A stretch of DNA of 33,916 nt. Source: an uncultured Clostridia bacterium (GTDB lineage: Bacteria; Bacillota; Clostridia; TANB77; CAG-508). Both the position numbers and the translations under genes were made by a program. This document shows positions 2,241 through 18,430 of this stretch, one piece after another. Each line of letters opens with the position of its first letter. Position 1 is the stretch's first letter. The stretch spans positions 1-33,916 of the forward strand of contig CAJFQT010000002.1 in the NCBI GenBank assembly GCA_904419095.1. Reading direction: 5' to 3'. Below the pieces are notes generated by a model, which worked only from the letters and a program-made list of their open reading frames with translations, did no database searches and was not told the DNA's origin.

Positions 2241-3492
2241 ATGAGAGATAATATGAGTTATATAAATGAAAACTTTTTAGAATTACAAGATAGTTACTTA
2301 TTTTCTACAATAGCAAAAAAAGTAGCTGAATACACAGAAAATAATCCAGAGAAAGAAGTCATAAAATTAGGGATAGGAGATGTAACAAAACCAATAGTAC
2401 CAGCTTGTATTGAAGCAATGCATAAAGCAGTTGATGAGATTGCAACAATAGAAGGATTTAAAGGATATGGACCAGAGCAAGGATATGAATTTTTAAGAAA
2501 AGCAATTGCAATAAATGATTATAAGTTAAGAAAAATAGAAATAGAAGAAGACGAAATATTTGTATCAGATGGAGCAAAGTGTGACTCTCGGAAATATAGT
2601 AGACATTTTTGCAAAAGAAAACAAAGTAGCAATAACAGATCCAGTATATCCAGTATACTTAGATACAAATGTAATGTCAGGAAGAAGCGGTAAATATAAT
2701 GAAGAAACAGGAAAATATGAAAACATTATATATTTACCAGTAACAGTAGAAAATAACTTTAAACCAGAATTACCAAAAGAAAAAGTAGATATAATATATT
2801 TATGTTTTCCAAACAATCCAACAGGAACAGTTTTAACAAAGCAGGAATTAAAAGAATGGATTGATTATGCAAAAGAAAATAAAGCAATAATCCTATATGA
2901 TTCAGCATATGAAGCATTCATAGAAGAAGAAAACATTCCACACAGCATATATGAAATAGAAGGAGCAAAAGAAGTAGCAATAGAATTCAAAAGTTTTTCA
3001 AAAACAGCAGGATTTACTGGAGTAAGATGTGCATACACAGTAGTACCAAAACAAGTAAAAGGATATACAAAAAAAGGAGAAGAAATAAGTCTAAACAAGC
3101 TATGGAACAGAAGAACAACAACAAAATTCAATGGAGTATCATACATAGTACAAAGAGCAGCAGAAGCAACATATTCAGAAGAAGGAAAAAAACAAATAGA
3201 AGAAAATATAAAATATTACAAAGAAAATGCCAAAATAATAAAGCAAGGACTAGAAAAAGCAGGATTCAAAGTATATGGAGCGATAAACTCACCATACATA
3301 TGGCTAAAAGTACCAGAAGGAATATCATCATGGGAATTTTTTGACAAACTACTTAAAGAAGTAAACATTGTAGGAACACCAGGAAGTGGATTTGGTCCAA
3401 GTGGAGAAGGATATTTTAGACTAACAGCATTTGCAACAAGAGAAAATACAATAAAAGCAATGCAAAGAATAGAAAACTGGAAAAGGGATTAA
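2241..3492 (+). pseudogene. dapL: LL-diaminopimelate aminotransferase (DapL-type), interrupted by a 1-nt insertion near 2587-2589
   Basis: Two overlapping ORFs (2241-2693 and 2560-3492) together form one class-I aminotransferase. Frame 1 reads ...[10 protein letters not shown] and frame 2 continues [29 protein letters not shown]. Removing one base of 'tctcgga' restores the conserved DGAKCD-GNI junction. The true start may be ATG 2253 (MSYINENFLEL). This may be an assembly indel rather than a real pseudogene. Confidence 0.8.
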
Positions 3493-3540
3493 GGGACGGT
3501 CCTCAAAATCCCTCCTAGAAGGGATTTTGGGGACGGACCT
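3481..3540. repeat. Left copy of a composite GC-rich inverted repeat: aaaaGGGATTaa-GGGACGGTCC-tc-AAAATCCCTCCTAGAAGGGATTTT-g-GGGACGGACC
   Basis: Read directly. It overlaps the last codons and stop of dapL. It contains a 24-nt near-palindrome flanked by two direct 10-mers. Its reverse complement matches 4180-4240. Confidence 0.85.
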
Positions 3541-3629
3541 TAAAAAAATTGAAAAAACAAGAAAAAATTTTAAATATATTTGATTAGTAGATGATGATGA
3601 TTAATTAAAAAATTAAAAAAGTTTGTAGT

Positions 3630-3760
3630 AGAAAATATAGCTATTGTATTATAAATGATATCTATAAGAAAGACAGAAAAATATAATTTATTTTATTATG
3701 AATAACTTATAGATGTCATTTGTTATTTTCAGAAATAAGCTATATTTTCTTTTTTTATTT
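3630..3760 (+). other. Long imperfect hairpin followed by a T-run (possible dapL terminator or small structured RNA)
   Basis: A perfect 13-bp inverted repeat agaaaatatagct (3630-3642) / agctatattttct (3738-3750) encloses a nested 16-bp inverted repeat (3653-3668 / 3706-3721) with one G-U-type mismatch. It is followed by ttttttattttt. Confidence 0.3.
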
Positions 3761-3896
3761 TTGGAAAACTTGATGTTTACTTAAATTTAATAATATTTTT
3801 CAAAAAAAGTATAAATTATTATGTAATAATACAAAATAAGAAGGAATAATTTTTTAATAAGTTAATAATATAATAAATTATTTTTAAGAAAAATAG

Positions 3897-4163
3897 TGTA
3901 CAAAAAGTAATGAATTAGATTATTAAAAGTTTTTGTACTAAAAGTAATAGAGAAAATTGTTAAAAGTTTATCACACTAAAAGCAATAAATTAGATTTATT
4001 AAAATGTTATTGCAGTAAAAGAGATAAAATAAAGTGTCAAAATTATTTCAATAAAAATAATAAATTAGAACATTAGAAAATTATAGCAATAAAAAATTGA
4101 TAGGTTATTGTATTTAAAAAATATTGTAATAAAAGATTAATAAATAACATTATTGAAAAAATT
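3897..4163. repeat. About 7 degenerate tandem units of 35-40 bp in the AT-rich leader
   Basis: Units start near 3897, 3934, 3971, 4010, 4049, 4084 and 4124. Each begins ~NNNNa(c/g)TAAAAG(t/c)AAT and ends ~TTAAAA(g)TT(t/a). Alignment was by eye and identity is partial. Confidence 0.5.
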
Positions 4164-4179
4164 TAAAAAAAATTTTCAA

Positions 4180-4240
4180 GGACCGTCCCCAAAATCCCTC
4201 CTAGAAGGGATTTTAAGGACCGTCCCTAAATCCCTGTTTT
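4180..4240. repeat. Right copy of the composite inverted repeat: GGACCGTCCC-c-AAAATCCCTCCTAGAAGGGATTTT-aa-GGACCGTCCC-tAAATCCCtgtttt
   Basis: Its reverse complement matches 3481-3540 with a few mismatches. It lies immediately upstream of the RBS (GAAGGAGG, 4241-4248) and ATG 4254 of the first polysaccharide gene. Confidence 0.85.
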
Positions 4241-4253
4241 GAAGGAGGCTTTT

Positions 4254-5453
4254 ATGAGGAATATAAAATTTTCTCCGCCTGATATAACAAATAAAGAAAT
4301 TAGAGAAGTAGTAAAGACTTTGAAGTCTGGATGGATTACTACTGGGCCTAAGACAAAGCTTTTTGAAAAAAGAATAGCGGATTTTTGTGGAACTGATATG
4401 GCTGTGTGTTTTAATTCTTGTACTGCTGGTCTTGAACTTATTTTGAGAGTTTTGGGTATAGGTAGTGGTGATGAGGTTATTGTTCCAGCATATACGTATA
4501 CTGCTTCTGCTAGTGTGATTGCTCATGTTGGGGCTGATATTGTTTTTGTTGATAATGATAAGGATAGTTTTTTTATTGATTATGAAGAATTGGAGAGTAA
4601 GATTTCTGAGAGGACTAAAGCTATAATTTTGGTTGATTTGGCTGGCGTACCAGCAGATTATTCTAAAACTTATGAAATTATAAATAGGAATTTGGATAAG
4701 TTTAGGGCTGAAAATGAAGTTCAAGAGGAATTTGGAAGAATTGTTTTGATTTCTGATTCTGCACATTCTTTTGGGGCTGAGTATTATGGAAATAGGGCGG
4801 GAAGTTTAGCTGATTTTACTAGCTTTTCTTTTCATGCTGTTAAAAACTTAACGACTGCAGAGGGGGGAGCTGTTACTTGGAAGAGTTTTGATGGTATTGA
4901 TAGTGATTTTTTGTATAAGTTGTTTTTGTTGTATTCATTACATGGACAAAATAAGGATGCTCTTCAAAAAACTAAGTTGGGGGCTTGGGAGTATGATATT
5001 CAATTTCCTGCATACAAATATAATATGACAGATATAATGGCTTCAATAGGTATTGCACAATTAAATAGGTATGATAAGTTGCTTAAGAAACGAAGGAGTT
5101 TGATTAATTTATATAATGAAAATTTAAAGGATTGTAATGTACAAATTTTGAATCACTATACAGAGAATTTGAATTCTAGTGGACATTTGTATTTGCTTAG
5201 ATTGTTGGGAAAAGGTGAAGAGGATAGGAATGAATTTATAAGAAAAATGGCTGATTTTGGTGTTCCACTTAATGTGCATTATAAGCCTTTACCTATGATG
5301 ACTGCTTATAAAAGGTTGGGATTTAGAATTGAGAATTTTCCAAATAGTTTTGATGTTTATAAGAATGAGGTTACTTTACCATTACATACGTTATTAAGCA
5401 AAAAGGACATAAATTATATTAGTAAAACTTTTAAAAGGATATTGGAGAATTGA
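4254..5453 (+). CDS. DegT/DnrJ/EryC1/StrS-family PLP-dependent sugar aminotransferase (EpsN/PglE-like)
   Basis: Motifs: FSPPDIT..EI..V...L.SGWITTGPK N-terminus, VPAYTYTASA, SDSAHSFGA, and SFHAVKN carrying the PLP lysine. Start moved to ATG 4254, behind the GAAGGAGG RBS. Confidence 0.85.
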   Translation: MRNIKFSPPDITNKEIREVVKTLKSGWITTGPKTKLFEKRIADFCGTDMAVCFNSCTAGLELILRVLGIGSGDEVIVPAYTYTASASVIAHVGADIVFVDNDKDSFFIDYEELESKISERTKAIILVDLAGVPADYSKTYEIINRNLDKFRAENEVQEEFGRIVLISDSAHSFGAEYYGNRAGSLADFTSFSFHAVKNLTTAEGGAVTWKSFDGIDSDFLYKLFLLYSLHGQNKDALQKTKLGAWEYDIQFPAYKYNMTDIMASIGIAQLNRYDKLLKKRRSLINLYNENLKDCNVQILNHYTENLNSSGHLYLLRLLGKGEEDRNEFIRKMADFGVPLNVHYKPLPMMTAYKRLGFRIENFPNSFDVYKNEVTLPLHTLLSKKDINYISKTFKRILEN

Positions 5454-6055: not shown

Positions 6056-6268
6056 GCCCAAGTGCTTGATATTATTATAATTTTAAATTTATTCCTACTC
6101 ATTTCATTCAGAAAGAAATTGTAGGGCTCTCTCATGAGCCTCTTTCACTCAGGCCCTTTCATTCTTCAAGTCCGTGAACATTCCTCATTCGATAGCCCAA
6201 CAATTTCTATTCTTCATTCCAATCGAACGGAATAAATTTAAAATTATAATAATATCAAGCACTTGGGC
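6056..6268. repeat. 213-bp palindromic intergenic element A: perfect 40-bp inverted arms (6056-6095 / 6229-6268) around a 133-bp partly self-complementary core
   Basis: The arm gcccaagtgcttgatattattataattttaaatttattcc and its exact reverse complement were verified base by base. Confidence 0.9.
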
Positions 6269-12942: not shown

Positions 12943-13040
12943 GAGATGGGCCGTCCGAAAGGTTGGTAATGATGTGTTTTAAAATTTTTCCTACTCACTG
13001 CATTCAGAAAGAAGTTGTAGGGCTCTCTCATGAGCCTCTT
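12943..13040. repeat. Truncated copy (left half only) of palindromic element A
   Basis: 12943-13040 aligns with 6047-6145. A 53-bp core ttcctactca.t.cattcagaaagaa.ttgtagggctctctcatgagcctctt differs at 3 positions. No right arm is present. Confidence 0.85.
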
Positions 13041-18110: not shown

Positions 18111-18430
18111 CAATTTGTGGTTTGAAAATAGAAGGCTGATTGGTGTTTGGGTTGTTTTAGGTAGAGTATAAATTGGGTACGTTGCCCGCTCCTGGAGGTA
18201 TGTATATAAAATATTTATTCCACTCCTCGGCTTGTTACATTGCCTACGCCTTCTAAGCCTAAAATAAACGAGCCTCTCGTTACATTCTTCACGCTTCCTC
18301 ATTTATTTTAGTCTAAGAAGGCGTACGACAATTCCACGGCACACTCGTCGTTACATAAATATTTTATATACATACCTCCTAACGCTGACTGAGCTACTGT
18401 TTTTGCCTTCTATTTTCAAGTTACAAATTG
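18111..18430. repeat. ~320-bp nested palindromic element C, related to element A
   Basis: Outer 26-bp inverted repeat 18111-18136 / 18405-18430 (3 mismatches). Perfect 25-bp inverted repeat 18194-18218 / 18355-18379. Inner 24-bp inverted repeat 18245-18268 / 18302-18325 (2 mismatches). The core shares gagcctct...cattcttca...ttcctcatt with element A. Confidence 0.85.

Follow-up and report, generated by a model that had tools for sequence, protein, structure and literature searches.

Inverted repeats upstream of a polysaccharide locus in an uncultured gut Clostridia bacterium are very probably two copies of a dispersed REP-like hairpin repeat of a tyrosine transposase system

We examined a 33,916-nucleotide stretch of DNA from an uncultured Clostridia bacterium (contig CAJFQT010000002.1 of assembly GCA_904419095.1, hereafter the window; the contig is C2 in our numbering). 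In this stretch, a pair of inverted repeats encloses the extremely AT-rich region between a gene of the LL-diaminopimelate aminotransferase type (dapL) and the first gene of a polysaccharide locus. The first-pass annotation of the window had proposed the enclosed region as a candidate module, invertible or regulatory, of the polysaccharide locus. The genome, designated G000, is represented by an assembly of 1.55 Mb with a G+C content of 27%, divided into 190 contigs and 83% complete. The repeat, which we call family A, resembles repetitive extragenic palindromes (REPs) and dispersed terminal inverted repeats (TIRs). Its end with AGGGATTT was termed outer (O) and its end with GGGGACGGACC inner (I), and copies were typed as OI, IO or OO. 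The main features of the locus are as follows.

2560-3492, plus strand: 3' part of the dapL-type gene, from its open reading frame (ORF) and the C-termini of relatives
3484-3540, plus strand: family-A doublet of the REP/TIR type in OI (outer-to-inner) orientation, 57 nt, limits read from the sequence, with the family listing, the stop codon overlap and the fold as evidence
3541-4178, no strand: unique ultra-AT-rich intergenic DNA between the copies, from a blastn search of 3547-4172 and colinearity in eight assemblies
4179-4235, minus strand: family-A doublet of the REP/TIR type in the opposite (IO) orientation, 57 nt, limits read from the sequence, its outer end reading AAATCCCT on the plus strand
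4254-5453, plus strand: first gene of the polysaccharide locus, encoding an aminotransferase of the DegT/DnrJ/EryC1 type, from its ORF and Pfam

Repeat finding in the window placed the two arms at 3481-3546 and 4173-4238. They are 66 nt each, 89% complementary and 626 nt apart, in agreement with the composite inverted repeats that had been noted on both sides of the AT-rich leader. Both arms are internally near-palindromic (inverted repeats I2 and I5), and an identical 24-nt core, AAAATCCCTCCTAGAAGGGATTTT, is common to them. As had also been noticed, the left copy overlaps the last codons of dapL: the stop codon TAA of the ORF (3490-3492) lies inside the copy, and AGGGATT-TAA comprises the last two codons and the stop. 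The right copy is separated by 6 nt from the ribosome-binding site (RBS) AAGGAGG (4242-4248) of the polysaccharide gene, whose ATG is at 4254. The dapL product ends here in ..NWKRD*. Those of relatives end in ..SWNK*, ..NWKVN* or ..NWDFQ*, and their genes have no repeat at the stop and other genes downstream. Judging from this sequence comparison, the native C-terminus and stop codon of dapL appear to have been replaced by the outer end of the left copy.

A genome-wide search for further copies, a check suggested in the first-pass annotation, revealed about 40 of them. The family-A consensus is 57 nt in length, (a/t)AGGGATTTAGGGACGGTCCTTAAAATCCCTyCTAGrAGGGATTTTGGGGACGGACCT, and forms a doublet. 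The first unit is a stem (AGGGATTT/AAAATCCCT) around the conserved box GGGACGGTCC, the centre is a CTAG loop, and the second unit, AGGGATTTT-GGGGACGGACC, is half-open. The 24-nt core occurs exactly 17 times in the genome, allowing up to two mismatches raises the number of distinct positions to 37, and the box is found 47 times. Copies of the hairpin core number 38 (21 OI, 10 IO and 7 full palindromes, OO), with single units besides. The pattern GGGACGGTCCNNAAAATCCCT gave 41 genome matches and none in the reversed control; the match is therefore far beyond chance. The loop does read CCTAGA on the plus strand in both window copies, as first described, and this is nothing special, loops differing among copies (CCTAGA, TCTAGG, TCTAGA and CCTAGG). 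Within the window, family-A pattern searches found no match at 6056-6268, 12943-13040 or 18111-18430.

Concerning its distribution, the family-A pattern was present in at least 99 stretches from many metagenome-assembled genomes (MAGs) of uncultured Clostridia and Clostridium sp. from the gut (chicken, human and other sources). The distribution is patchy. The exact repeat is held by two of the 25 same-genus genomes searched, one being G000 itself, and sites that are filled in other MAGs appear empty in G000. Rfam has no family for the repeat, giving only sub-threshold chance matches to microRNA models and traJ_5. Excision footprints left no signal, in that solo AGGGATT was counted 124 times where base composition predicts about 136. 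In 25 of 31 copies, the outer-to-inner strand is the G-rich one, a bias confounded with gene orientation; the exceptions are start-facing partner copies and the C82 locus, both described below.

The position of the copies relative to genes is regular. Outer ends in G000 usually overlap or adjoin the stop codon of a long ORF that runs in the same direction, with the stop supplied as T+AG of (T)AGGGATTT, as TAG/TAA in AGGGATT-TAG-GGACGG, or directly upstream. A co-directional stop lies within -6 to +14 nt of the outer end in 25 of 40 cases in G000 and 37 of 73 in other MAGs, compared with 3.6% for non-coding positions drawn at random. Genes were represented by ORFs of 80 aa or more, and the figures for G000 and the other MAGs are lower bounds. 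A minority of copies face gene starts (C2 4194, C18 10456, C25 1298, C5 25851 and C117 3937). The window pair is one of five such brackets in G000, whose interiors are mutually unrelated and two of which enclose whole minus-strand genes.

As RNA and, by extension, as single-stranded DNA, the outer-to-inner strand is predicted to form a hairpin of at least 15 bp in which two pairs are G-U (G-T in DNA); its energy is -33 to -41 kcal/mol with z near -5, and the opposite strand folds more weakly. The left copy gave -33.3 kcal/mol (z -5.4). For the right copy, the minus strand (-41.2 kcal/mol) is stronger than the mRNA-sense plus strand, on which 4160-4262 gave -29.1 kcal/mol for the whole stretch and -24.1 kcal/mol from the element's own hairpin. 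In a hypothetical read-through transcript, a duplex between the two arms is predicted at -96 kcal/mol, compared with -57 kcal/mol for two local hairpins, and the predicted minimum free energy (MFE) structure of 793 nt pairs the arms together. The earlier idea that the GGGATTTT/AAAATCCC segments can pair in several registers holds at the level of predicted structure.

G000 carries two Y1_Tnp (PF01797) genes, both intact, encoding proteins of about 240-265 aa that resemble REP-associated tyrosine transposases (RAYTs). One of them (C62:2658-3485) stands between inverted copies of another dispersed repeat family, family C (AATGGTCAATC-GGGGACAGGTCCC-GATTGACCATT), and the other (C26:1239-2009) likewise between inverted copies of family B (GGAACATT-GGGGACACGCC-AAATCGTTCC). 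Family B can be written as GGAACRTT-GGGGACACGCC-AAAWCGTTCC, and family C as ATGGTCAATTG-GGGACAGGTM-...TTGACCAT with the box GGGGACAGGTM. About 26 copies of each are found in G000, and families A, B and C are all built as a variable stem surrounding a GGGGAC box.

A tblastn search with the two G000 proteins against loci carrying the family-A pattern detected homologues in two other MAGs, Chicken_20_mag_41 (L072) and E12__bin165 (L062). The order in both is an OI copy, an ultra-AT-rich leader of 300-470 bp, a RAYT-like gene, a second gene and an IO copy. The repeats are exact family-A copies, the Y1_Tnp proteins between them are 258-259 aa in length, and the outward-facing geometry is the same as that of the window pair. 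A diverged version of the arrangement was found in genome G006. In G000 itself, the orthologous locus (C82:1075-2495) has the same flanks and the same second gene, with 593 bp missing relative to L062. What remains of the gene is the start codon and the part encoding a C-terminal helix-turn-helix (HTH), the catalytic domain being deleted, so that this assembly contains the family-A transposase only as a pseudogene. Unlike the multi-copy genes of insertion sequences, there is one transposase gene per repeat family in G000, two intact genes and one remnant corresponding to three families.

The NCBIfam model REP_Tyr_transpos matched the two G000 proteins and the one from G006 over the full length of the model with E values of 1e-13 to 1e-17, at scores (50-62 bits) under the curated cut-off of 80 bits. 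The same three proteins exceeded the cut-off for Pfam Y1_Tnp and gave weak C-terminal matches to HTH_23, HTH_24 and HTH_19. In an alignment of six proteins, including the two flanked by family A, H61-x-H63 (HUH) and Y121-I-x-x-N-P are invariant. The best match of a profile of these six in the Protein Data Bank (PDB) was E. coli TnpA-REP (4ER8; E 0.0014), compared with an E value of 0.3 for ISDra2 TnpA, which places these proteins nearer to TnpA-REP than to the TnpA of IS200. The match to 4ER8 came from the profile search only, and a single-sequence search of the PDB gave no match.

We compared the system with those already described. RAYT-like genes flanked by long TIRs are known as TIRtrons or TIRYT (Di Nocera, De Gregorio & Rocco 2013, PMC3733652). 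Some of these TIRs carry GGGGWSAS, and they form moderately abundant dispersed families that also occur as dimers or clusters; the text of that study makes no mention of Firmicutes or Clostridia. The repeats examined here share with TIRtrons a RAYT-like Y1 gene situated between long inverted repeats rather than GTAG REPs, the dispersal of the same repeats in moderate numbers, singly, as dimers or in clusters, and the presence of several families per genome, each with its own transposase. The motif GGGGWSAS is fitted at all eight positions by family B (GGGGACAC) and family C (GGGGACAG), and at seven of eight by family A (GGGGACGG / AGGGACGG). In contrast to the published TIRtrons, the host here is an uncultured gut Clostridia bacterium (27% GC, 1.5 Mb) outside that survey, the second unit of the family-A doublet is half-open, the outer end of family A lies on stop codons unusually regularly, and its cognate gene is deleted in G000.

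The repeats also resemble the REP/BIME-REPIN elements that accompany RAYTs (E. coli TnpA-REP, 4ER8; Bertels & Rainey 2011, PMC3116915; Nunvar 2010; Ton-Hoang 2012). Common features are short imperfect extragenic palindromes located mostly downstream of genes, inverted doublets, a single-copy, repeat-flanked Y1 HUH transposase for each family and a patchy occurrence among relatives. REP termini, moreover, often provide the TAG stop of flanking ORFs (PMC3733652), as the family-A termini can do for the upstream gene. The differences are that the conserved box is in the loop or on one arm here and not at the foot, and that the proteins are longer (~240-265 aa, with a C-terminal HTH) and fall under the NCBIfam RAYT cut-off. 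Their length and C-terminal extension recall subclass 2.1 of the TnpA-REP proteins, which carry C-terminal HTH extensions and were found to have no REP-like sequences beside their genes (Quentin et al. 2018, PMC6006769), and RAYT Group 1, which is reported also from Clostridia (Bertels et al. 2017, PMC5581495). This likeness concerns long TnpA-REP-like proteins with an HTH_23/Bac_DnaA_C-like extension, corresponding to weak HTH matches here, and makes membership in these groups a possibility. Unlike the subclass 2.1 genes, those found here are clearly flanked by dispersed repeats.

Other classes were considered and set aside. The consensus outer end has no GTAG or GTGG foot, which excludes a canonical GTAG REP. 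The box has CGTC on one strand, but the layout of published CGTC REPs, in which the tag is followed immediately by a stem of 8-9 bp, with a loop of 4-5 nt and a CCA tail, is absent, and a CGTC-tagged REP was rejected. Compared at the level of sequence, the family-A system fits the description of TIRtrons and is not a canonical GTAG REP. The first-pass annotation had also allowed for an insertion resembling a miniature inverted-repeat transposable element (MITE). MITEs have terminal inverted repeats and a target-site duplication and derive from insertion sequences (ISs) of the DDE type. Here, no direct repeats flank the full palindromic copies, and the associated transposase belongs to the Y1 HUH type instead of the DDE type, so that membership in this class was dismissed. 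The suggestion of a MITE-like insertion nevertheless comes close to the outcome, in that the repeat is dispersed miniature mobile DNA, of the REP/TIR type and associated with a tyrosine transposase.

Taken together, it is very probable that the two arms are independent, oppositely oriented copies of a 57-nt REP-like/TIR-type hairpin repeat belonging to a RAYT/TIRYT (Y1 HUH) system found in a lineage of uncultured gut Clostridia. If the enzymes act as E. coli TnpA-REP and the IS200/IS605 transposases do, family-A hairpins would be recognized and cut or joined as single-stranded DNA. The left copy would have landed on the stop codon of dapL, which it would now supply, and the right copy would form part of the polysaccharide operon's 5' leader, with 6 nt separating it from the RBS. 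The 626 bp between them would be a pre-existing, or at least unrelated, AT-rich intergenic region and not an invertible cassette. Any effect on expression would be a by-product of the stable RNA hairpins predicted at the 3' end of dapL and in the 5' untranslated region (UTR) of the operon. Because the cognate transposase gene is a deletion remnant, the family-A copies in G000 are probably fossil, unless a sister RAYT cross-mobilizes them.

Several points weigh against this explanation. An intact cognate transposase was not found in this 83%-complete assembly, and current mobility in G000 is therefore unproven. The outer end, (A/T)AGGGATTTAGGGACGG, is without the canonical 5' GT[AG]G foot of REPs. 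No target-site duplication was seen, the flanks of the full palindromic copies containing no direct repeats, and no clean empty site was found at the strain level; the exact ends of the element and the mechanism of insertion are consequently inferred. For the window locus in particular, dapL orthologues in 12 relatives have differing downstream neighbours, giving no clean empty site, and when metagenomes were scanned with the DegT-type protein, the relatives obtained did not exceed 62% identity. In addition, each start-facing IO copy has an OI copy at the stop of the upstream gene (in the case of C117, a remnant, TAGGGATTAA, only), which may hint that the pairs are not fully independent events. 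The last point concerns our survey of orientation, which was based on contigs encoding exactly the DegT-type protein (66 blocks indexed, 24 contigs read, 8 places from different ENA assemblies) and reflects majority states only, so that low-frequency inversion or excision would escape it. The outcome of the survey itself speaks for the explanation and against switching: in all eight independent assemblies, the 901-nt stretch 3400-4300 is colinear at 99.0-100% identity with both arms present, and the interior is inverted or deleted in none. The differences among them are a few single-nucleotide polymorphisms (SNPs), an indel of one GAT unit at 3590-3592 and one loop SNP at 4205.

The interior has a G+C content of approximately 15-20%. 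With 3547-4172 as query, a blastn search of the genome and of every locus retrieved gave weak low-complexity matches only and no relative elsewhere. Promoter-like sites in the interior were not enriched over shuffled sequences in a consensus scan, promoter and terminator scans of this type being uninformative in such AT-rich DNA. Two further features were recognized.

3630-3762, plus strand: large nested hairpin of AT-rich sequence and, after it, a T-run (inverted repeats I3 and I16; fold of -35.8 kcal/mol), between the left repeat and the tandem array
3897-4094 (to about 4163), no strand: about five degenerate 37-38-bp tandem repeats with 69-70% matches, from Tandem Repeats Finder

The hairpin and T-run are a candidate terminator of the dapL transcript, as modelled by folding; the consensus terminator scan did not call it. 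The tandem units at 3897-4094 are kept in all eight assemblies and have no relatives elsewhere in the genome. A GAT trinucleotide run, gatgatgatgat, at 3582-3595 of the window varies by one unit among the eight assemblies, a strain-level copy-number polymorphism.

Invertons are known from capsule loci, an example being the polysaccharide promoters of Bacteroides fragilis under the control of Mpi, and use short recombinase sites. The arrangement in the window resembles them, as inverted repeats of about 60 nt surround several hundred bp directly upstream of a polysaccharide operon, and a site-specific recombinase flipping the 626-bp segment could be imagined to switch the operon ON and OFF. Serine and tyrosine recombinases are indeed encoded elsewhere in the genome, including a resolvase-type frame of 222 aa on contig C10. 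A search for such enzymes, suggested with the original proposal, thus had a positive outcome for the genome and a negative one for contig C2, where no serine or tyrosine recombinase was found, in line with the statement that the window has no recombinase gene. We regard such a switch as extremely improbable, because the assemblies contain one orientation, the arms are dispersed, C2 has no recombinase and promoter-like sites occur at the frequency of shuffled sequences. The arms here belong to a genomic repeat of about 40 copies that lies mostly at stop codons and consists of composite hairpins of ~57-66 nt with no adjacent or dedicated recombinase, and the other pairs surround unrelated DNA, even whole genes. 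Homologous inversion would also be poorly served, since the longest perfect arm-arm match in the inverted register, determined by eye on the aligned copies, is 17 nt. A module dedicated to the polysaccharide locus is therefore not supported. The first-pass annotation had itself named, as an outcome that would speak against its proposal, a lack of reads in the inverted orientation together with a REP- or MITE-like repeat dispersed genome-wide without a link to promoters; the dispersal, the location mostly at stop codons and the single orientation in eight assemblies largely agree with this.

A different possibility is that the pair and its interior were inserted whole as one unit, either a decayed TIRtron that has lost its transposase gene by erosion or a long non-autonomous element of TIR, spacer and TIR. 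The OI...IO geometry is that of true TIRtrons, which also have an ultra-AT-rich leader of 300-470 bp; tight OI-IO dimers with 64-75-nt spacers occur in other MAGs; start-facing IO copies always have an OI partner; and dapL is not adjacent to the polysaccharide locus in relatives. The interior, however, is unlike RAYT genes, RAYT leaders and the interiors of other pairs, and no two of the five G000 pairs have related interiors. In the single comparable case, L002, the interior aligns weakly, at low complexity, with the native intergenic DNA of the empty site on C72, which suggests insertion at both borders rather than of a cassette. With this evidence, we judge insertion as a single unit to be unlikely. 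An interior that is itself a decayed transposase or a shared cassette was rejected, as no similarity was found. Exaptation as an RNA element would be compatible with two independent insertions. In such a model, the arms of a read-through transcript would pair into a duplex of about 60 bp that loops out the leader as an RNase III-type processing site, or local hairpins would stabilize or terminate the 3' end of dapL and modulate the stability or translation of the operon 5' UTR. The energy predicted for the arm-arm duplex relative to local hairpins and the pairing of the arms in the 793-nt MFE structure favour it, as do the greater stability of the sense-strand hairpin at gene 3' ends, owing to its G-U pairs, and the precise positioning at stop codons and RBSs. 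A passage of the TIRtron study, moreover, reports REPs as RNA elements (PMC3733652). Local hairpins, on the other hand, fold first during transcription, and the hairpin and T-run at 3630-3762 may end dapL transcripts before the right arm is reached. Purifying selection against insertion elsewhere in compact intergenic regions could give the same placement. We thus hold an RNA function to be doubtful, if somewhat less so than insertion as a single unit.

Returning to two separate copies of a transposase-linked repeat, this explanation removes a false lead, in that the polysaccharide locus is left without evidence of a phase-variable promoter. It documents REP/TIR-type repeats with tyrosine transposases in uncultured, low-GC Clostridia of the gut, which the published REP surveys that we compared do not include, and it catches a transposase gene as a deletion remnant while some 40 repeats persist. 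These repeats create long inverted repeats that mimic invertons, and pipelines that search gut MAGs for invertons should therefore mask such families. As for their placement, exactly on stop codons and with partner copies a few nucleotides before the RBS of the following gene, we offer as a speculation of low probability that it is more than an effect of survivorship and may reflect a choice of gene boundaries as targets by Clostridial RAYT/TIRYT enzymes, or exaptation of paired doublets as RNA 'brackets'. If brackets of this kind were real, arm-arm duplexes or local hairpins would process or stabilize the flanking mRNAs and insulate dapL from the polysaccharide operon. GGGGAC-box hairpins, if likewise confirmed, would be the long-missing DNA partner of RAYT group 1/subclass 2.1, which has been reported without REPs.

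Two other gene boundaries drew our attention. At C117:3810-3990, the last bases of the upstream gene are TAGGGATTAA, which correspond to the initial 10 nt of an outer end, and the rest of the element is absent. This sequence is situated about 100 nt before the start-facing IO copy, which abuts AAGGAGG, and may have arisen by truncation of a partner copy, by excision or by chance. At C100:3780-3921 in G000, a family-B unit occupies, judging from blast coordinates, apparently the same intergenic site as a family-A doublet at L029:2274, which suggests recurrent use of one gene boundary by different repeat families.

Gene annotation is affected as well, since in housekeeping genes such as dapL the final codons and the stop are rewritten by the repeats. 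The dapL-type gene of the window (2241-3492) is also split, being called in two frames of 150 aa and 272 aa. The same split calls are present in six of the eight independent assemblies, the remaining two loci being cut off within the gene, so that an error confined to this MAG is not the cause. The split represents either a true frameshift or pseudogene, or a programmed event.

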